From an uncultured Spirochaetota bacterium (GTDB taxonomy: Bacteria; Spirochaetota; Spirochaetia; SZUA-6; Fen-1364): DNA of 64,000 nt. A program made the position numbers and the translations under genes. The stretch is from contig CAVUXE010000048.1 in assembly GCA_963745235.1 (NCBI GenBank), positions 32,001-96,000 of the forward strand. The letters are read 5' to 3'. The notes beneath the pieces were generated by a model. That model did no database searches. It was not told the origin of the DNA and saw nothing but the letters and a program-made list of their open reading frames with translations. Below, in pieces: positions 21,911 through 41,216 of this stretch (within the stretch, counting starts at the first letter, position 1; the number at the start of each line of letters is the position of its first letter).

Positions 21911-23692
21911 ATGCGGATACCGGAAAGCACGCTCTCCGAGATTCAGAACCGCCTCGACATTGCGGAGGTCATCGGGGAGTACGTGACCCTGCAGCGCAAG
22001 GGCGGGAGATACTGGGGCCTCTGTCCCTTTCACCAGGAGAAGTCGCCTTCCTTCACCGTGACCCCGGAGAAGGGAGTCTACTATTGTTTCGGATGCCACA
22101 AGGGGGGCGGGCTTTTCCAGTTCGTGATGGACGTGGAAAAGATCGAGTGGCGCGATGCCGTTGAGCTCCTGGCAAAGAAAGCGGGAGTGGAAATCCCCCA
22201 GGGAGACGCGGGAGGGGAAGGGGCCAAAAGGGAAGCGCTTCTGGAGCTCAATAAGAGGGTCGCCGGAAGCTTCCACTGGCTGCTCCGCGAAGGGGCGCAG
22301 GCGGAGGCCGCCCGGACGTACCTGGAATCCCGGGGCGTGAGCAAGGAGATAGTTGACAGTTTCCAGCTGGGCTACGCTCCCCCGGAAAGGGAGTGGCTGC
22401 ACAGGTTCCTGAAACAGAAGAGCTACTCCGATGAGTTCCTGGCGCAGACGGGGTTGTTCACGCAGGCTTCGCGGGGCGGCATGGGGACGTTGTTCACAAA
22501 CCGCGTCATGTTTCCCATCGCCAACGCTCGGGGGGAAACGCTGGCATTTGGCGGAAGGGCGCTGGGAGACGTCCAACCGAAGTATCTGAACTCCCCTGAG
22601 ACGGCGTTTTTCCGCAAGGGTGAGAACCTTTTTGCGATCGACAAGGCGGCGGCTGCCATTCGCAGCGCAGGCGCGTTTGTCCTGGTGGAGGGCTACATGG
22701 ATGTCCTGGCGATGCACCAGGCAGGCATCGCCAATTGCGTGGCCCCGCTGGGAACGGCGCTCACGGAGCCCCAGGTGCGGCTCCTGAAGCGCTACGCGCA
22801 GAAGGGAATCCTGGTGTTTGACGGAGACGATGCCGGGCAGAAAGCCAGCATGCGGGCCATCGAGATGCTGGAGCGCCAGGACTTGATTGCGCAGGTCGTT
22901 GTTCTTCCGGACGGCCAGGACCCGGCGGACTTCGTGCAGAAGGGGGAGGCCGCGAAGCTTCGGGAGCTGTTGGAAAGGCCCCTGGACAGCTTCCGCTACT
23001 TGACGGCAAGGGCTCTCGCCGCGCGTGACCTCGCCAGCCCGGAAGGCAGGGAAGGGTTCCGCGATTTCCTGTTTCCGTACGTGGCGGCCGTTGGCTCCCA
23101 GTTGAGGGCGGACGGCTACCTGACGCAGATTGCGGAGGCTCTTGGCGCGGAGCCCGGAGCCATTCGCCGGGATTTTTCGGCCTGGAGGTCCCGGGAGAAA
23201 GACCGCGGAAGGGGCAAAGCGGTGAGCACAGCGGAAGGTCCCGCGGCTGTTTCCGCGGACTTGTTTCTTTTTCTCGCCGTTGCCGCGAATCCGGAGCTCT
23301 TCCCACTTGTCCGCAACGGCGGGATTTCGATTTCTGATCTCGATGATGAGCGCGCCAGGCAGCTTTTCATCGCGTTGGAGGAATGCTTTCGGGCGGAGGA
23401 AACCGGGCTTGACGCGTTGTGCGCACGGATCGACTCGCCTGCGCTGCGGGATCTTGTGATTCGCAAGGTCGCGAGCGGAGAGTTCGACATGAACCAGGAA
23501 AGACTGGTCAGGGACGGAGTGCGGCGCGTACGCCAGAGGGAGCTCGCAAAGCGCATCGACCTGTTGGGGGCGGAAATGCGAAGGATCGATCGAGAAAGCC
23601 CGGATGCCGCGCGCATGCGTGAGCTTCTCGCGGAAAAGATGCATCTGGACGACGAGCTTGCGAAACTGAACACGGGGGCTGCAAGGGCTTGA
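21911..23692 (+). CDS. dnaG: DNA primase
   Basis: [15 protein letters not shown] zinc finger; PKYLNSPET; VEGYMDV; FDGDDAG TOPRIM motifs. Confidence 0.97.
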
Positions 23693-32434: not shown

Positions 32435-34860
32435 ATGCGGCTGATCGACCCCGTTCGCGACCTTTCGAGCATACTCCAAAGCGTCGAGAAACCAGCTCGC
32501 TACGTCGGGGGTGAGTACGGCTCCTTGCTCAAGGACAACGCCGCACTCTCGGTGGCCATCTCGTATCCGGACCTGTACGAGATCGGCATGTCCAACAATG
32601 CGGTGAGAATCCTCTACAACATCCTGAACGCCCTGCCGGACGTCCAGTGCGAGCGGGTGTTCGCGCCGGCTCCGGATTTCGAGGCCCGGCTTCGCGCGGC
32701 GGGCATTCCGCTCTTTTCCCTGGAGTCAGGGAGGGCGCTGCGAGACTTCGACCTGATCGGGTTTTCCTTCGGATATGAGCTGACCATTACAAACGCGCTC
32801 GCCATCCTGGAGTGCGGCGGGGTGAGCGTTGAGACCGCGGCGCGGGGCGCCGATGAGCCGATCGTGATCGTCGGGGGGCCGGCGGCAGGCAATCCGGTTC
32901 CTTTCGGCGTCTTCGCGGATTGCGTTTTCATAGGGGAAGCGGAAGGCTGGGCGGAGCGAGCCTTCTCAGACCTGGGACGCATGAAGAAGCAGGGGGCTTC
33001 GCGCGCGGACTTGCTTTCCTGCCTGCGCGCTGATCCGTCCATCTGGTACACAGGACGGACGGAGAAGGTAAGGCGGGCGCTCTGGAGGGGGTTCGCCGCG
33101 CAACTGGCTGACACGTGTTTTCCCGTGCCGAGCATGCGGGTGGTGCAGGATCACGGAACGGTGGAGATCATGCGCGGGTGCCCGAATGCCTGCAAGTTCT
33201 GTCATGCCACGGTGTACTACCGGGCGTGCAGGCGCAAAGCAAGGGACCTCATCCTGCGTGAAGTGGATCACCTGGTGAGAGCCGGGGGATACCGGGAGAT
33301 CACGCTCTCCTCCCTGTCGTCCGGGGACTACACGGGAATCCATGACCTGGTGCAGGACCTGAACTCCCGCTATGCGCCGCTCCTCGTGTCCTTCGCACTT
33401 CCCTCCCTCCGGGTGGATTCCCTCGGGCTGCAGCTGCTGGCCGAGATCTCTCATGTTCGAAAGAGCGGGCTCACTTTTGCCGTTGAAACGGCGAGGGATG
33501 AATGGCAGCAGGAGATCCGCAAGAAGGCCGGCCTCGGGAAAGTCGTTGAGATTCTCAGGGAGGCACGCTCGCAGGGATGGCGGGCGGCCAAGTTCTATTT
33601 CATGGTCGGCCTTCCGGCGTCCTTCGAGCAAGACGAGGCTTCAGCCATCGTGGATTTCCTGTCCGAGGTGCAGGCAACCACGGGAATGTCCTTGAACGTG
33701 AACGTGGCGGCATTCATTCCCAAGCCTCACACCCCTTACCAGCGCTCCGCGCAGATCACCGAAGACAAGGCGCTGGAAAGGATCATGGCGGTGAAGGCAG
33801 GGCTGCGAGGGAGCGGATTCAAGATTGGTTACCATGCTCCCTTTCTGTCCGTCCTGGAGGGAATTGTCTCCCGGGGGGACGAAAGGGCCGGGCGGCTCGT
33901 CCTTGACGCATACCGGCGCGGCGCACGCCTGGACGCCTGGGAGGAGCACATCAGGATCGACATCTGGCGTGAGGCAATTTCGGCCGCTGGCTGGGACGTG
34001 ATCTCAGAGACATGCAGGCAACGGGCTCAGGACGAAAAGCTCCCGTGGGATCTTGTTGCCCTGGGCCTTTCCGCAAGCGAGATATCTGACGTCCAGCCCT
34101 TGGTGTCACAGCGGCAGCCCGCGACGTCGTCACCTGCCGCATGCTCCGCCACGTCGTCACCTGCCGCATCGCCACCGCCATCTCACCCGTGGCGCCTTTG
34201 GGCATCGCGGATGCCGCCGGCATTGCAGGCACCGCGGACGCCGCATGGATGCGCCTTCTTTTCACTTTCTCAAAGACAGGCCGCTCGGTTTTCATTTCCC
34301 ACCTCGACCTCATGACCGTCATGGAGAGAGCGCTTGCCCGGGCGGGCTACCGAGCCCGATTCACAGAAGGATTCAACCCGAAGCCGCGCCTGGAGTTTGC
34401 AAGCCCCCTTGGGCTTGGAATTGCCTCGATGGAAGAAGTGGCCTGCATAGACCTGCGCGGCCTGGATTCCACCTCTTCTTTTCTCTCGCGAATGAACTCC
34501 GCGCTTCCTCCGGGAATCGCCATCCGAAGGGCGGCTGCCGTGCTGCCTCCCGTGCCCCTGGCTCCCCGGCGCTCCCTGATGTCGGCATGCTGGGGCGCTG
34601 AGTACGAAGTAGTCGGGCAGGGAGATGCGCGTATTCTTCGACTGAGGGCCACCGAGCCGTCAATCCGTAAGACCCTCGAAGCGCAGGGTGTTTGGGGGGC
34701 AACGCGGGCGGTCCGCACGCGCACGTTCGCGCGGGGGAGGACGGACGAGCCTGTTTCCTATTTCGAGGCGTTCTGCGGCTTGTCCGACTCTGCCGCTTCC
34801 AATGACGCTGCCGCGGGCGTTTCCGCCGAGGCCGCGGAGACTTCCTCGGACTTGACCTGA
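32435..34860 (+). CDS. TIGR03960-type radical SAM protein, probably fused to a TIGR03936/DUF2344 domain (frameshift ~34180)
   Basis: VEKPARYVGGE, YPDLYEIGMSN, EIMRGCPNACKFC, PSLRVD, FIPKPHTP; C-terminal FSK.G...FISHLD..ERAL.RAG..FTEGFNPKPRL. Could be two genes. Confidence 0.88.
34124..34169 (+). repeat. Direct repeat with 27-nt period in the interdomain linker
   Basis: ACGTCGTCACCTGCCGCAT at 34124 and 34151. Confidence 0.8.
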
Positions 34861-35657
34861 TTCCACAGGGAGTCCATTCGCGCAAGACCGGCGTCAGAAG
34901 GCGTGACCCCTTGGGCGGCGAGGCGTTTCTCGATCTCCCGGAACCTGCGCTCGAACTTCACGTTCGTCGCGTGAAGCGCGACGGAAGGGTCCACCTTCAG
35001 GAAGCGGGAAAGGTTGATCACCGAGAAAAGAAGATCTCCTACCTCCGCCTCTATCTCTCCCGGGACACCTTCCTTTGCGGCTGCCGCCAGCTCTTGCATC
35101 TCTTCGGCGATCTTGTCCCACACGGGGCCCGCGGAAGGCCAGTCGAAACCGACCTTCGCCGCTTTTTTCTGAAGCTTGAGGGATTTCTCCAGGGGCTGGA
35201 GCGCTGCCGGCAGATGGTCCAGGACGGAGTCCGCGGCGGGCTCTGTCCCTTTCTCTGCCGCCTTGATCTCGTCCCACCGAACGAGGATTTCCTTCACCGA
35301 CCCCGCGCTCGCGTTTGCGAACACGTGCGGATGACGTCGCACCAGCTTCTCGTGGATCCGGTGCAGCACCGATGACACGGTGAATGTACCCTCCTGCTCC
35401 TTCATCCAGGCGACCATCGTCACGAGCAGGTACAGGTCTCCAAGCTCTTCCTCGAGGTTTTTCTCGTCCCGTGCATCGATGGCGCTGACCGTCTCCCACA
35501 CCTCCTCCACAAGGCTGGGGCGAAGGGTGGTGGGAGTCTGGGCGCGGTCCCACGCGCACCCGTCAGGTGCTCGCAGGCGTTGGATGGTTTGCAGAAGCTT
35601 TGCAAACGATGCCGCGGGATCGTCGCTGTTCGATTCTCTGCCTGTTTCACCGTTCAT
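34758..35657 (-). CDS. mazG: Nucleoside triphosphate pyrophosphohydrolase MazG
   Basis: LRAPDGCAWDRAQT, EELGDL, KLVRRHPHVF, KAAKVGFDW, EVGDLLFS..N. Confidence 0.95.
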   Translation of the reverse strand: MNGETGRESNSDDPAASFAKLLQTIQRLRAPDGCAWDRAQTPTTLRPSLVEEVWETVSAIDARDEKNLEEELGDLYLLVTMVAWMKEQEGTFTVSSVLHRIHEKLVRRHPHVFANASAGSVKEILVRWDEIKAAEKGTEPAADSVLDHLPAALQPLEKSLKLQKKAAKVGFDWPSAGPVWDKIAEEMQELAAAAKEGVPGEIEAEVGDLLFSVINLSRFLKVDPSVALHATNVKFERRFREIEKRLAAQGVTPSDAGLARMDSLWNQVKSEEVSAASAETPAAASLEAAESDKPQNASK

Positions 35658-35718: not shown

Positions 35719-36864
35719 CTATTTCGACTCGGAAATGAGGGAGCGCAGCTCGCGCGCCAGCTCGTCCCCGTTCTTCACATCGAGGATGCGGTCGTTGATG
35801 CTCACGACCGGTCCATGAGCGCACATCCCCCGGCAGGGGACCGTTTCCAGGGAGAACATGCCGTCGGGTGTTGCTTCTCCGCTTGAAATGGAAAGAGTCT
35901 TTCCGATGGCTTCCAGGAGCTCCTGGGATCCGTTCTTTGTGCACGACTCTCCCCGGCACAGCGCGATGCGGTAGCGCGCGGGCGGATCCGTGCGGAACAC
36001 GGGGTAGAACGCGGCGGTCTCCAGGACTTTTTCCCGCGTGATGTTCAGGAAATCTGCTATGTAGCCAATTGAGTCCTGGGACAGGTACCCGAAGGTCTTC
36101 TGCGTATCTTCCAGGACCCGCACCAGGAACTCCCTCTTCGGCTGGTAACGCGCAAAGATGTCGATCAGCGCCTGCGGCGGGTTTGTCCGCGCATCCTGGG
36201 GATGGTTCTCCTTTTTCCGTCTCTTGAGGTAATGGGACAGGATGGCGAGACCCAGGGCAATGTTCTCATTGCGCACAACGATGTCCGAGGGCACGGCGAG
36301 CTGGGTCGGAGAAAAGTTCCAGATGGCCTTGATCCCGAGGGAAACGATGCGTCCCGCCACCGACTGCGCGGCGTCCTTGGGAACGCAAATGATGGCAATG
36401 CCCACGTCGAAGCTGCGCACCACCCTCTGGAGGGACTCCATGGGGAGGATTGTGAACGCGCCGAGAATGCTCCCGGTCTTGGACGGGTCGTTGTCGAAAA
36501 TCGCCACGAGACGCAGGCCATACTGCGCCAGGCCCGGGTACTGACTGAGCGCTGAGCCCAGGTGGCCCGCGCCAATCAGGATTGCAGTGTTTTCGTAGTT
36601 GATCCCGAGAAACTCCTCGATGGCTTTCTTGAGCCCGAGGATGGAGTAGCCGGCCTTCGGCTTTCCCTTGTAGCCGATGAGGGACACATCCTTGCGCACC
36701 TGGGTGTCATCAATGCGGAAGAACTGGGCAAGATGGCGGGAGGATACGTAGGATTCACCCCGCGCCTGCATTTCAGCGAGGATCTGGTGATAGAGCGGGA
36801 TGCGCCTCAGCGTCTGTTCAGGAATAGGGTGGTCGATGGTGTCAAGGAATTCTCTCTGTTCCAC
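35719..36864 (-). CDS. rex: Redox-sensing repressor Rex fused to a C-terminal NuoE/HydC-like [2Fe-2S] domain
   Basis: IPEQTLRRIPLY..VSS..LA..QVRKDVS..G..G..GY (wHTH); GAGHLG.AL, FDNDP, GIKAIWNFSP (Rossmann); then FGYL..FY..F..CRGESC..CRGMC.HGP. Confidence 0.9.
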   Translation of the reverse strand: MEQREFLDTIDHPIPEQTLRRIPLYHQILAEMQARGESYVSSRHLAQFFRIDDTQVRKDVSLIGYKGKPKAGYSILGLKKAIEEFLGINYENTAILIGAGHLGSALSQYPGLAQYGLRLVAIFDNDPSKTGSILGAFTILPMESLQRVVRSFDVGIAIICVPKDAAQSVAGRIVSLGIKAIWNFSPTQLAVPSDIVVRNENIALGLAILSHYLKRRKKENHPQDARTNPPQALIDIFARYQPKREFLVRVLEDTQKTFGYLSQDSIGYIADFLNITREKVLETAAFYPVFRTDPPARYRIALCRGESCTKNGSQELLEAIGKTLSISSGEATPDGMFSLETVPCRGMCAHGPVVSINDRILDVKNGDELARELRSLISESK

Positions 36865-36875
36865 TGGCCCAGCTG

Positions 36876-38105
36876 TCACGGAGAAAGCTGCTGGAACTGG
36901 TCCTGGAGGGAAAGGGTCTTCTGCACCGTCCGGATGCTGTCTGCCGCTGGCTGGTACTTCGGATCTATCTGGAGAACGGCCTTCCAAAGCTCTATGGCCT
37001 TCGCGTAGTCTCCGTTTGCAAACTCATCCACTCCCTGCAGGTACAGCTGGTCCGCGCGGGCCTCTCTCTCCCCACGCCCTGAATCCCCGAGGTCGAGCTT
37101 CGCCTGGACGCTGAACTTGTCCAGGGGGCTCAGCGACCCGCTGAGGTCCACGTTGTAATTGACGTCGAAGTTGAGTGTCCCCATCTCTATCATGGTGCCA
37201 AGGCTGATCCGGGGGTTGTCCGCCTTCATCAGAACGCCTGCTTGAAGGGAAAGGAAGCTGGTCACGGCGACGTTGGTGCCGACCGCCACGTTCCATACTT
37301 CCGCTGGCGGCTGCCATGAGAACATGAAGGGATAGTTGAAATCCAGAGCGATCGTCCACGGCCGCAGCGGGCTCCAGGCAATCCCCGCGCTGGCCACCTG
37401 GGGAAGCGTCTCATCCGACAGTGTCGTGATTCCGAGGTTCTTCACGGCTGCCCCGACGGAGAAGTTTTTCGTCCGTGAGGAGTAGAACTTCAGCAAGTTG
37501 AAGCTTGTCTGGACTCCAAAATCCGCCATGACCGCCAGTGAGGACTGGTTGGCAGCAAAGACGGCGGGAATGCTTTGATACGCCGTCTTCAGATTGGCCC
37601 CGACGGAGACCCCGCTGAAGTAATAGCCGGAGAAGAAGTTGTATGACACGTTGGCCGTGAGCGTCGTTTCGGTTATGTAGTCCTGCGCGCCGGCAACGCC
37701 CCATTCGTTATACGCGGTGAAGGGGACGTAGAGGAACTTCCCGGCAAGCCCGACTCCGAGGTCGTTGAACCTCATCGTGTAGACTGCTCCCTCCAGGTTC
37801 GAGTCCGCGATCCAGGCGTGATGGAAAAAAGAGAGCTCAGTCCTGGCCATGCGGGAGCTGGCCGCCGGGTTCGACTCCATGAAGCCGGCGTCCGCCGCCA
37901 TTGCGGTGTATGCAGTTCCCATTCCCTCCAGCCGGCCGCCCATGGGAATGAGGAGCGTGGGGAACGAGGTGAGCCCCGTGTTCGGGTCCGCAAAGTTCTT
38001 CAGCAGGTTTGACCACGCGGAGTAGAAGTCCGCGCTTTGGGCCCACAGCCCGATGGGGGCAATGACGAGAAGGCAGAATATGGTGAAAAATTTCGCGCCT
38101 TTCAT
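36876..38105 (-). CDS. UPF0164 family (FadL-like) outer-membrane barrel with C-terminal TPR
   Basis: Signal peptide; DPNTG.T.FP.LLIP.GG..EGMGTAYTA...D....E.NPAAS; LSFFHHAWIADS; amphipathic strands; TPR LYLQG..G.Y.KAI.LW. Confidence 0.85.
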   Translation of the reverse strand: MKGAKFFTIFCLLVIAPIGLWAQSADFYSAWSNLLKNFADPNTGLTSFPTLLIPMGGRLEGMGTAYTAMAADAGFMESNPAASSRMARTELSFFHHAWIADSNLEGAVYTMRFNDLGVGLAGKFLYVPFTAYNEWGVAGAQDYITETTLTANVSYNFFSGYYFSGVSVGANLKTAYQSIPAVFAANQSSLAVMADFGVQTSFNLLKFYSSRTKNFSVGAAVKNLGITTLSDETLPQVASAGIAWSPLRPWTIALDFNYPFMFSWQPPAEVWNVAVGTNVAVTSFLSLQAGVLMKADNPRISLGTMIEMGTLNFDVNYNVDLSGSLSPLDKFSVQAKLDLGDSGRGEREARADQLYLQGVDEFANGDYAKAIELWKAVLQIDPKYQPAADSIRTVQKTLSLQDQFQQLSP

Positions 38106-38207
38106 CAACATCTAATTATACATCGGTTCAAGCCAACAATCCAGGGAGAGGATACAATGAAAGCATGGTGGGGGTGACCACAGGCCAATTTTCGTCGATA
38201 ATGGAAA

Positions 38208-41200
38208 TTGTGGGGTTCTGTGCGGACACATAGCCTGAAAGCCCTTGCGATCTTGGTCTGCCTCTTGCTTCTGCCCGCAGCTCTCGTCATTGGCGGCGGA
38301 CAGCAGGAGGCGAGCCTGTCCGACGTGCAGCGCCTCATGGACCAGCTTGACTACCCCGGCGCCCTCAAGCTCCTGGCGAAGATCCAGCGCGAACACCCCG
38401 ATCAACGCGACGACACACAGCGCCTCATCATGATGATCATCTCGAATCAAGGCAAGGAGTACAACCAGGTCCTGACCCGTCTCATCCATGTTCTTTACGT
38501 GGAGGAGGATGCGGACGCGGCGCTGCCTCTCATCGATACGCTGCGGCGGCTCGACCCGTACAGGTCCAAGGGCGAAGCGCAAAAATCGCTCCTGTATGTG
38601 AAGTTCCTGAAGCTCATGGATTCCGCGGCGGCCCTCCTGAATGAAGGGAAAGTCCCCGAGGCCATTGACCTCTATCTATCACCGTTCACGGACCCCGCAA
38701 AGGCCGGGTTCGACATGGACAAGCCGGCCTTCGATTCGGCCGGGTACGGGAACATCGTGGCCGCGAGCGTTCGGGGTGCCGTGGCAAGAATTGTGGATGC
38801 AGGCACGCAGGCGCGAAATGAAGCGCCTTCCGTGCGCGGGGCGCAATCCGCGCTGAGCTCGGTGGTGACATCCGCGCCGGGACCGCAGACCCTTGCCCGG
38901 CTTGACGAGGGTTTCGCCCCCCTGGCGCTCGTCCGCCAGCAGGAGCAGGCCGTGCTCTCTTCAGCCGCCGCTCTCGACGATGTGAGCAAGGCGATTGGAG
39001 AAAGCCCCCAGGGGACCGGAGGTGAGTCATACCTTCGCTACATTTCCTCCCTCACGCGGGGCCGAAAGGGCAAACCGGCGGAGGGTCTTGCGCAGGCCGT
39101 GGCAATGTTGTGGGAGCCGGCAGCGGAGTCGGCCGCAAGCGCTGCCGCAGGGGCCGCCGCCTCCTCCTATTCCGAGGCGCGAAAGCTTTTCGACCAGGGC
39201 GACCTGGCCGCTGCCGAGCCGAAGCTCCAGGAGGCGTATGACCGGGGGGTGCTCGCGGTCAAGGCCGGTTCATTTACGGCGGGAGCGCTTCACCCCTCCG
39301 CCGGATGGGGGTTCTCAGCGTCGGACTCGACTCGATTGGCGTCACTCCTGGAAAGGATCTCCCAGAGCCAGGAGACTGCCGCCGAGGCCGCGGCCCTGCT
39401 GCAGCTGATCTCCTACGAACGACGCGCTCAGGCCCTTCCCTCGGAGGCAACACTGGACGCCCAGGCTATAGCCGCGGCCCGGGCACAGGAGATGTCCCTG
39501 CACGATGAGGCTCTCGGGGCGGGCAAGAAATGGCAGGCGCGTGCGTCCGAGCTGGCGCAGCAGCAGCTGACGGGACCCGCGCTGGGTGCCCTGATCGAGG
39601 GGGCCAACGCAATGGCGCAGAGATTCGATTCGTTCACCGCGCAGCTATCTCAGAAGGACCTCGCCTACGCGGTGGCCCTGGCTCGGAGCGGGGCGGCTCA
39701 GTTCGCGACGCGCCTCTCAGACGAAGTCAAGCTCCGTATGGACGGGCAGGACACCCTGAACGGAACCGTGAACGGAAAACAGCCGGCCCAGGACGTCTAT
39801 GTCGAAAGAAAGCCGGGCGCGGCGCTGAAGTCGTTCAACGACGCCTCCTCGGCACTGGATCAGCTGACCACGGACATCGCCGATTTCAGGACGAAATTGA
39901 GCGGCCCGGTAGCGACCAACCCTACTATTGCGGATATCCTGGCGAACCTGGACACAGTGGAGTCGAAGGTCCGAACGGAATCAAGCGAGGTTTCGCGTCT
40001 TGCCCAGCTCGCCGAACAGCAGCATCAGGACGCCCTCACGAAACGCAAGGAGGCGGACCTCGCTTTTTCGGACGGCAGCCGGGCGCTTGCCGCGAAGCAA
40101 TACGACGGGGCGAAGCTCCAGCTTGGGGATGCGCGCGATCTTTACCTGGACTCCCTTCTTCTTGAAGAAGACCCGGCGGCTCGCAAGAGATACACGGCGG
40201 AAATACCCGCCCTCATAGACCGGGTCAACAACGCCATCGTGGAGCAATACATCGCGGACGTGGACGCCCAGGTGAGCGAGGGTCGAAGGCTCTTCTCGAA
40301 CGGGGAGTTCCTCAAATCGTTCCTTACCCTGGAGACAGCCCAGGGACGGTGGAAGGCGACCCTGGGAGACAGGCCGAACTCTGACCTGGATGCCCTCCTG
40401 GACAGGGTCCGCAAAGCGCTGCAGGCAAGCGGCGGACGGGATCTTGCACCGGACGACTCCCGCGCTCCCGTCATCAACGGCTTCCTCAACATTGCCAACG
40501 ACAAGGCGGGGCGCGCCGAAAAGCTTCAGAAGAACGATCCGCGGAGGAAGCAGCTCCTGGACGAGGCCTACGACAACGTCATGTCGGCCCTCGATGTCGA
40601 CCCTGTGTATCGCAACGCAAAGGCGCTGCAGCTTCGCATCCGCAAGCTGCAGGCAAAAGACGATGCTGCCTTCCGCGCGGAGGCCAAGGCGGAGATCGAT
40701 TCGATCATCGCTGAGTACCACAACAAGAAAGGCCAGCCTGAGCGGTTGTATTTCGCGCTGAAGGACTACCAGGACATTCTGCCCGACTACCAGCCCCTGC
40801 GGGGTGCAATCCAGGAGCTGGAGATCAGCCTCAACTTGAGGATCCGGCCCCCGTCGGACGCGGAGATTGCAAGCTCGAACAAGAGCCTGGCGGATGCCGA
40901 GGGCATCTACAATGCCCGTGACAGCACCACCTATGGGACCGCCCTGAACGATCTGGACGCCGCCATCAAGCTCAATCCGTCCAACGAACGCGCCAAGGCG
41001 CTCCGCAGGGAAATCCTCCAGAAGCAGGGGAGCCCGGAAGCAAGCGGCCTCTCGCCGGCGGATTTCGCGAGATTTGCGCAGAGCAAGCGCCTCTTTAATA
41101 CGGAAGACTACGCGGATGCCTTGCCGATTCTTGATAGCCTGCACGAACGGAACGCGAGCTACCCGCCTTTTGAGCTGCTCTACCACCTGACGCGGCAGAA

Positions 41201-41216
41201 GCTGGGGTTGGAATGA
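38208..41216 (+). CDS. Large exported alpha-helical/TPR-like protein (~1000 aa)
   Basis: Signal sequence followed by GGGQQE; helical repeats; DAAIKLNPSNERA; start approximate (38208 or 38220). Confidence 0.8.
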   Translation: MWGSVRTHSLKALAILVCLLLLPAALVIGGGQQEASLSDVQRLMDQLDYPGALKLLAKIQREHPDQRDDTQRLIMMIISNQGKEYNQVLTRLIHVLYVEEDADAALPLIDTLRRLDPYRSKGEAQKSLLYVKFLKLMDSAAALLNEGKVPEAIDLYLSPFTDPAKAGFDMDKPAFDSAGYGNIVAASVRGAVARIVDAGTQARNEAPSVRGAQSALSSVVTSAPGPQTLARLDEGFAPLALVRQQEQAVLSSAAALDDVSKAIGESPQGTGGESYLRYISSLTRGRKGKPAEGLAQAVAMLWEPAAESAASAAAGAAASSYSEARKLFDQGDLAAAEPKLQEAYDRGVLAVKAGSFTAGALHPSAGWGFSASDSTRLASLLERISQSQETAAEAAALLQLISYERRAQALPSEATLDAQAIAAARAQEMSLHDEALGAGKKWQARASELAQQQLTGPALGALIEGANAMAQRFDSFTAQLSQKDLAYAVALARSGAAQFATRLSDEVKLRMDGQDTLNGTVNGKQPAQDVYVERKPGAALKSFNDASSALDQLTTDIADFRTKLSGPVATNPTIADILANLDTVESKVRTESSEVSRLAQLAEQQHQDALTKRKEADLAFSDGSRALAAKQYDGAKLQLGDARDLYLDSLLLEEDPAARKRYTAEIPALIDRVNNAIVEQYIADVDAQVSEGRRLFSNGEFLKSFLTLETAQGRWKATLGDRPNSDLDALLDRVRKALQASGGRDLAPDDSRAPVINGFLNIANDKAGRAEKLQKNDPRRKQLLDEAYDNVMSALDVDPVYRNAKALQLRIRKLQAKDDAAFRAEAKAEIDSIIAEYHNKKGQPERLYFALKDYQDILPDYQPLRGAIQELEISLNLRIRPPSDAEIASSNKSLADAEGIYNARDSTTYGTALNDLDAAIKLNPSNERAKALRREILQKQGSPEASGLSPADFARFAQSKRLFNTEDYADALPILDSLHERNASYPPFELLYHLTRQKLGLE

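Follow-up and report, generated by a model that had tools for sequence, protein, structure and literature searches.

The gene at positions 35,719 to 36,864 of the DNA analysed here, a stretch of 64,000 nucleotides from contig CAVUXE010000048.1 of an uncultured Spirochaetota bacterium (assembly GCA_963745235.1; the whole stretch is called the window), joins in one polypeptide the redox-sensing repressor Rex and a domain of the HydC/NuoE type. Rex is the textbook sensor of NADH/NAD+ and is regarded as a single-input switch; in this soil spirochaete it carries a domain derived from the Fe-S subunit of the hydrogenase that it appears to control. Here we describe the gene and its frame, its distribution in the order, the origin of the appended domain and the predicted operator, together with the possible functions of the fusion.

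Layout and integrity of the gene

The reverse strand holds a single open frame of 381 amino acids from a GTG at 36864 to the stop codon at 35719-35721. A longer form starting with TTG (to 36987) would run into the upstream gene, whose end lies at 36876. A preliminary description of this DNA had placed Rex, a linker and a NuoE/HydC-type module in one frame; this layout was borne out, and all motifs quoted at that time are present. The gene and its parts are as follows.

35719..36864, reverse strand: whole rex-hydC-like fusion gene, 381 codons plus stop, GTG start
36682..36825, reverse strand: Rex winged-helix DNA-binding domain, residues 14-61 (Pfam PF06971, Put_DNA-bind_N, E 2.8e-15)
36307..36594, reverse strand: Rex Rossmann NAD(H)-binding domain, residues 91-186 (Pfam PF02629, CoA_binding, E 2.1e-14)
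36223..36261, reverse strand: last Rex helix (alpha9 equivalent), residues 202-214 (DSSP helix in the AlphaFold2 model; alignment with T. maritima Rex)
36169..36222, reverse strand: linker of 18 residues, 215-232 (KRRKKENHPQDARTNPPQ at 214-231), a conserved basic RRKKE followed by a variable part
35980..36168, reverse strand: HydC/NuoE-type helical cap, residues 233-295 (PF01257 profile from position 3; model helices 231-286)
35764..35979, reverse strand: thioredoxin-like [2Fe-2S] subdomain, residues 296-367 (Pfam PF01257)
35956-35958, 35941-35943, 35833-35835 and 35821-35823, reverse strand: codons of the predicted ligand cysteines C303, C308, C344 and C348, respectively

Residues 13-219 are Rex at equivalog level (NCBIfam NF003994, 241.2 bits, cut-off 130), and with the winged helix, the Rossmann domain and the last helix recognized by Pfam and in the AlphaFold2 model this half is complete by fold, as described before. 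The QVRKD motif includes R57-K58 (36691-36696), and GAGHLG corresponds to residues 98-103 (36556-36573). In the C-terminal half the family 2Fe-2S_thioredx (PF01257) covers residues 235-367 with profile positions 3-135 of 145 (E 1.1e-36); the cluster motifs CRGESC and CRGMC contain C303 and C308, and C344 and C348, respectively. The earlier view of this half as a NuoE-type module stands as far as the full fold and the four cysteines are concerned. It is not a typical NuoE: 11 of 32 canonical columns are replaced (see below), and the score stays below every NCBIfam NuoE/HoxE/FdsG cut-off (best TIGR01958, nuoE_fam, 109.2 vs 142.4 bits).

In a sequence search of the PDB, Rex proteins of known structure match the whole of residues 13-216 (E 1e-32 to 1e-35) and the NuoE/HydC-type part gives matches up to E 2.5e-27, while no solved chain spans both the Rex and the Fe-S halves. 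The literature searched, which excludes most subscription journals, holds no description of a Rex-NuoE or Rex-HydC fusion, in agreement with the earlier statement that no protein of this architecture has been characterised. Rex, HydC and the control of hydrogenases by Rex are known; what appears to be new from the sequences is their combination, the orphan location of the gene and the seemingly re-tuned cluster pocket.

The fusion is real, intact and evolutionarily maintained, and is not an artefact of assembly. Mapping over 36150-36250, as proposed in the preliminary description, showed the junction bridged by Logan contigs of soil and peat metagenomes (three runs, each from a different study; one of the runs may be the source sample of the window itself), all free of indels within the coding region (X1, 36146-36354; X2, 36122-36390; X4, 35995-36658). 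A caveat raised earlier, that an AAGGAG and an out-of-frame ATG at the junction might mark a separate start, does not hold: the AAGGAG represents the codons of the family-conserved Lys-Glu in the KRRKKE linker motif (consensus of the family), and the internal start was ruled out because the frame of that ATG stops after 9 codons. A sequencing or assembly frameshift that fused adjacent rex and nuoE-like genes can thus be practically dismissed. Three assemblies do show the gene in broken frames, and contigs in two more (G012 and G020) end at or just past the Rex part, but besides the independent contigs of three runs there are 20 genomes with the intact gene and a linker motif conserved at the protein level, and nearly all of the closest relatives combine the same three Pfam domains. 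The breaks at or just after the Rex part are found on contig C527 of G012 and contigs C236 and C40 of G020, where paralogous NuoE-type sequence may confuse short-read assembly.

No enzyme partner is encoded close to the gene. The absence of nuoF or hydB noted in the preliminary description extends to the entire contig of the window (C48), which has no match to PF01512 (NuoF/HydB), and the two neighbours named there were found again.

36876..38111, reverse strand: UPF0164 outer-membrane family gene, 11 nt upstream of the rex start (Pfam PF03687, E 1.2e-46)
34758..35657, reverse strand: mazG, 61 nt downstream of the fusion gene (Pfam PF03819)

With mazG downstream, the locus is not a hydrogenase operon. 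A scan for promoters and terminators gave nothing relevant.

Distribution, origin and state of the fused domain

An architecture search, also suggested earlier, found all three Pfam families in 119 of the 120 best-scoring of 610 hits (identity 67-94%); the remaining one is a fragment of 352 amino acids. In the order, 46 of 92 genomes have a match at E <= 1e-60. The intact fusion is present in 20 of the 92 genomes and in two of the eight families, with 16 genomes in family f1, including that of the window (G000), and four in family f8. Two further copies are cut at a contig end, three have broken frames, and 21 genomes have plain Rex orthologues, which are 59-82% identical over the Rex part and end after the last Rex helix. 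The three frame-broken copies (G008, G018 and G021) come from assemblies with few contigs and only 60-72% completeness. True decay was set aside for them, as this combination is probably that of indel-rich assemblies.

The setting of the gene is shared by fused and plain forms. The UPF0164-rex pair is closely spaced (6-40 nt) across families, with fused Rex at loci L033, L034 and L035 and with plain Rex at L027 and L028. In G022, a member of the same family as the window's genome, a plain Rex lies in the same UPF0164-rex-mazG-radical-SAM context and ends 10 nt before mazG, and family f6 has kept the UPF0164-rex pair with plain Rex.

Among the 1.84 billion proteins of a library at the 50%-identity level, the entire fusion family falls into one cluster (P0101) and fragments, and in a species-representative genome collection the single-frame form is confined to records labelled Spirochaetota (L044-L046). 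The name given to the fusion proteins in public annotation is 'redox-sensing transcriptional repressor Rex'. For the homologue P0042, the matches listed in the Protein Atlas were all plain-Rex clusters at 0.76-0.77, below the counting level.

When 48 NuoE-type domains are compared by maximum likelihood, in a tree that has no species root, the fused domains of f1 and f8 fall in one clade (100/100 support), nested with 98/98 support among the HydCs of the order, including the type found in the hydrogenase operon on contig C37 of the window's genome. The stem of the fused clade has a length of 1.12 substitutions per site. Other parts of the tree hold NuoE of complex I, Hox and the HydCs encoded beside rex in other phyla. 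The nesting of the fused clade strongly supports the view that a duplicate from the very HydC lineage which Rex is predicted to regulate was captured and has since evolved fast. The comparison further indicates a single gain for f1 and f8, with the absence of the domain in some lineages reflecting loss or later gain.

The segments of the protein differ in their rate of change. Averaged over 119 sequences, identity to the protein of the window amounts to 92% for Rex, 64% for the HydC-like domain and 49% for the linker. Column entropy is highest in the linker (1.60 bits) of all segments apart from the C-terminal tail, and is lower in the helical cap (0.84) than in the thioredoxin-like cluster half. 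C303 and C308 are found in 119 of 119 members, C344 in 116 and C348 in 114; all four cysteines occur together in 111. From these ligands, the domain is predicted to hold a [2Fe-2S] cluster.

The surroundings of the cluster ligands differ from those in canonical proteins. A set of 38 HydC/NuoE proteins has 32 columns that are at least 85% conserved. The fusion family keeps 21 of these, and the 11 replaced are mostly located beside the ligands: the canonical CxGTACHV has become CRGE[TS]CSR, CLGxC has become CRGxC, G296 is replaced by A and G282 by E. Since the replacing residues, which are often charged, are themselves conserved in the family, the environment of the cluster looks re-tuned rather than decaying.

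An AlphaFold2 model built with 119 sequences is confident for the Rex domains and for the HydC-like domain over residues 227-380. The predicted local distance difference test score falls below 50 only at residues 1-12, 88-91 and 201-226; the last of these segments comprises the last helix and the linker, and low values are to be expected there if the helix packs against the second subunit. The predicted template modelling score of 0.37 suggests that the two domains have no fixed packing in the monomer.

Predicted operator and hydrogenase operon

The fusion is the sole Rex of the window's genome (5.85 Mb, 85.7% complete), with one PF06971 match over the cut-off, and a single Rex was also found in five of five fusion-bearing relatives of 96-99% completeness. 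Its DNA-reading and nucleotide-binding residues are conserved. R57-K58 align with R48-K49 of T. maritima Rex (PDB 5zz5/7wb3), which are reported to read operator bases (PMC8836258). K58 and D59 do not vary among the 119 sequences, and V56 and R57 hardly do; G98, G100 and G103 of the GxGxxG motif and F123-D124, which supplies the acidic residue after beta2, are invariant as well. The alignment with T. maritima Rex reaches residue 216, through alpha9 to the end of that Rex. According to the report on that protein, alpha9 tilts like a pendulum upon NADH and drives the DNA-binding domains off the operator (PMC8836258).

The operator consensus given for Rex is TTGTGAA-N4-TTCACAA (PMC2883068), and control of hydrogenase genes by Rex is stated to be established in Firmicutes (PMC6391272). 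A scan of the window's genome with this consensus delivered 12 sites with up to two mismatches, mostly inside genes. The best intergenic site, TTGTGAATCTATTCACTA, is located on contig C37, 43 nt upstream of the hydC start and ~33 nt downstream of a TTGACA; this predicted operator of 18 bp overlaps the promoter of a hydC-hydB-hydA operon. A box with 0-3 mismatches occupies the same position upstream of hydC in 20 of 21 family genomes with upstream sequence (six boxes with 0, nine with 1, two with 2 and three with 3 mismatches). In a weight-matrix scan the C37 site scores 29.8 bits, the next best site 19.9 and the best site in a reversed-genome null 20.2, with a matrix that was built solely from the 20 hydC boxes and is hence biased to the hydCBA operon; the plain consensus scan agrees with this picture.

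The other sites in the genome with up to two mismatches are mostly intragenic and score in the range of the null, and at the other four NuoE/NuoF loci there are sites with three mismatches or none. Two matches with up to three mismatches in the 64-kb window, at 22482 and 29265, are within chance. A pattern scan of five good relative genomes gave few sites. Together these scans strongly support the prediction that the only strong Rex operator in the genome lies over the hydCBA promoter, and the regulon appears to consist essentially of this one operon. Similar boxes upstream of hydC were found in one f8 genome with the fusion and in one f6 genome with plain Rex, and the predicted link between Rex and hydCBA is therefore not specific to the fused form.

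The operon on C37 encodes HydC (163 amino acids), a NuoF-like HydB (607) and the [FeFe]-hydrogenase HydA (533), together with a HydS-like hydrogenase-domain protein and two-component signalling genes. Besides the fused domain, the genome has five NuoE-type modules, each beside its own NuoF-type gene.

Contig C37: HydABC operon
Contig C3: second [FeFe] system
Contig C58: complex I
Contig C15: NuoE-NuoF-GltD-like set
Contig C35: Hox-type [NiFe] system, NuoE and NuoF fused

As every NuoF-type gene has its own NuoE, no enzyme is left with a vacant place for the fused domain.

Further potential regulators are encoded with the hydrogenases. On contig C37 the HydS-like gene (L146 4132-5241, reverse strand) is followed by kinase and response-regulator genes within the operon predicted to be under Rex control, and contig C3 (L147 2954-4966, reverse strand) encodes a 670-amino-acid protein with an [FeFe]-hydrogenase H-domain, HisKA and HATPase_c, a hydrogenase-like sensor kinase. 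Hydrogenase expression seems to be subject to several sensory layers. In G023, a gene for an NrpR-like regulator (HTH_12 + NRD1_2) on contig C1 (L155 973-1980, forward strand) precedes a different HydC-HydB-HydA-like operon, which has no Rex box.

Related arrangements and possible function

Outside the fusion clade, rex followed by a separate hydC on the same strand was found at 20 loci of the species-representative collection, with two more loci ambiguous. These belong to Bacteroidota, Ignavibacteriota, Elusimicrobiota, Planctomycetota, Lentisphaerota, Armatimonadota, Vulcanimicrobiota, Omnitrophota, Bacillota and Thermotogota. At the closest spacings the two genes lie 1 nt apart or overlap by 4 nt, and such adjacency also occurs at loci of the order. 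The possibility considered earlier, that all homologues are two genes, therefore fails in the Spirochaetota fusion clade and is true outside it.

A second, independent type of fusion (P0127-like), 34% identical to the protein of the window, is a single frame in six of six metagenome loci. At the three loci with downstream sequence the fused gene is directly followed by hydB, hydA, a response regulator and a HydS-like gene, and no separate hydC is present; the fused HydC is presumably the enzyme's own subunit. With PF01257 scores of 165-169 bits the HydC half of these proteins is canonical, and in the tree it joins the C37-type HydC (80/79 support). At five of the six loci (L183, L185, L186, L187 and L188) a conserved, imperfect palindrome of the Rex-box type with four mismatches to the consensus lies 22-25 nt upstream of the fused gene, which hints at autoregulation. 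The window's gene resembles this type in the order of Rex and HydC, in the HydC clade and in the type of operon to which it is linked. It differs in being located at a housekeeping UPF0164-rex-mazG locus instead of opening the hydrogenase operon, in the presence of a separate hydC in the organism's operon, and in the lower PF01257 score of its fused domain (126 vs 165-169 bits).

A third kind (P0156 and P0261, ~300 amino acids) consists of Rex and a thioredoxin-like [2Fe-2S] core (PF01257 from ~62 to 140) with four cysteines and no helical cap. Rex normally works as a homodimer; P0124, P0128, P0133 and P0202 (394-443 amino acids) are tandem Rex-Rex proteins, single-chain pseudo-dimers with two winged helix-turn-helix and two Rossmann domains.

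Compared with the canonical Rex proteins of solved structure (T-Rex of T. aquaticus/T. thermophilus, Rex of B. subtilis and T. maritima, RSP of Thermoanaerobacter; 1xcb, 3ikt, 2vt2, 5zz5/7wb3 and 3wg9), the fusion shares the winged helix-turn-helix, the base-reading R-K pair, GxGxxG, the last helix and the type of operator, and differs in ~165 additional C-terminal residues forming the predicted Fe-S domain. Other Rex proteins have broad fermentation regulons, unlike the apparently single-operon regulon predicted here. With HydC, NuoE, HoxE and NDUFV2 (7p5h_C, 8a6t_C, 7q4v_C, 2fug_2) the fused domain has in common the helical cap, the thioredoxin-like domain and the pattern Cx4C...Cx3C; unlike these subunits it has no co-encoded flavoprotein, remains below the NCBIfam cut-offs, sits on a long branch and shows the column replacements described above. 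In SoxR, IscR and RsrR the state of a [2Fe-2S] cluster gates promoter activity; these are MerR or Rrf2 proteins with the cluster in their own fold. Their relation to the window's protein, in which an NADH sensor carries an entire domain from an enzyme subunit, is one of functional analogy, with no kinship in sequence or fold.

The electron-bifurcating hydrogenase of the HydABC type draws on NADH and reduced ferredoxin at the same time and contains many oxygen-labile Fe-S clusters. We tentatively favour, at somewhat less than an even chance, the reading that the fusion is a repressor of hydCBA which responds to NADH and, through the last Rex helix, also to an Fe-S-based signal. By analogy with Rex proteins of known structure, hydCBA would be repressed while the protein, in its apo form or with NAD+, sits on the operator; NADH would tilt alpha9 and so free the DNA. 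The appended domain would carry a [2Fe-2S] cluster in a remodelled, more charged pocket. As the domain hangs directly on alpha9, the same switch could be biased by whether the cluster is in place and by its redox state, as set through ferredoxin, O2 or other oxidants or through Fe-S supply, and the hydrogenase would be derepressed only with both signals favourable.

Several observations weigh against a repressor with two inputs. We infer the cluster from its ligands only, and in eight of the 119 members one ligand cysteine is replaced by Ser or His; C344 is Ser in three sequences and C348 is Ser in two, and the three closest relatives (P0002, P0006 and P0008; 89-94% identical) have His at position 348, a natural Cys3His site. 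Evolution has been much faster in the HydC-like half than in Rex, and the low entropy of the helical cap fits a role in protein contact equally well. In G022 the hydCB genes are present with a plain Rex at the same locus, and the fused domain is dispensable there. The fusion is kept in G023, where the thresholds used revealed neither a hydCBA operon like that of the window's genome nor an operator with up to one mismatch. No Rex box with up to three mismatches lies near the fusion gene that would speak for autoregulation. At 85.7% completeness of the window's genome a second Rex or further operators could be missed, which together with the bias of the weight matrix bears on the single-operon regulon. 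A metatranscriptome run (X18) has no contigs over the stretch and hence is silent on expression.

A different function would be that of a repressor docking on the enzyme, in which the domain binds the NuoF-type HydB in place of or beside the true HydC; the hydrogenase would thereby tether or titrate Rex and make transcription dependent on the amount, the assembly or the flavin-site state of the enzyme instead of the cluster. We regard this as rather unlikely, although the domain derives from the HydC clade of the very operon that is regulated, the helical cap is retained (P0156 and P0261 have none) and is the best-conserved part of the domain, the P0127-like proteins are independent fusions within hydrogenase operons, and rex and hydC are adjacent on the same strand at the 20 loci of other phyla and at loci of the order. 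On the other side, all NuoF-type genes of the genome already have their own NuoE or HydC, and the replacements, often by charged residues, affect the cluster loops; in complex I the NuoE-type cluster faces the flavoprotein. The stem of the clade is long and the domain scores under all NCBIfam NuoE/HoxE cut-offs. G022 has the operon with a plain Rex, and G023 has the fusion, with an operon of this type not found. A complex prediction for HydB and fusion residues 227-381 gave a score of 0.00 and a mark of 0.32 without controls, and counts neither way. In a broader version, which we consider unlikely, Rex and the bifurcating hydrogenase would be physically wired in a circuit like that of a trigger enzyme, the domain plugging the repressor into HydB; the two fusions and the rex-hydC adjacency would then be traces of a general contact between Rex and HydABC that went unnoticed in model organisms. 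The domain might also have no sensing role at all, either as a structural add-on that alters oligomerisation or stability of Rex, or as the degenerating leftover of a past rex-hydC fusion. Faster evolution than in Rex (64% vs 92% identity), the ligand substitutions, the absence of the domain in G022 and the plain-Rex families that share the operator architecture at hydC all fit such a remnant, but two families and more than 100 sequence clusters have kept the domain intact, it has invariant residues other than the ligands and conserved family-specific replacements, and both of its subdomains are confidently modelled; broken copies are seen only in the few-contig assemblies of low completeness mentioned above. 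This makes a remnant or a mere add-on very unlikely.

The fusion makes directly testable the question of whether one polypeptide integrates the pyridine-nucleotide pool with the state of ferredoxin, Fe-S clusters or oxygen. Natural controls exist in the plain-Rex orthologues at the same locus, in the Cys-to-His and Cys-to-Ser variants and in the independent fusion within the operon. Docking on the enzyme, if true, would represent a new kind of direct feedback from enzyme to promoter in anaerobic H2 metabolism and would be relevant to engineering redox-responsive control of hydrogen production.

Two other features were noted in the vicinity of the gene. An open reading frame of 1002 amino acids (38208-41216, forward strand), divergent from the UPF0164-rex unit, has no Pfam match at E 1e-5. 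On the other side, a radical-SAM gene (32435-34315, forward strand; Radical_SAM_N2 + Radical_SAM), the tail of which is of low complexity, overlaps a DUF2344 open reading frame (34141-34860) in a different frame. The two parts form one frame in G022 (L027 4705-6972, 755 amino acids) and in G018 (L039 97-2415, 772 amino acids), and the window is therefore probably frameshifted near 34140-34315, be it a real change or an assembly error.

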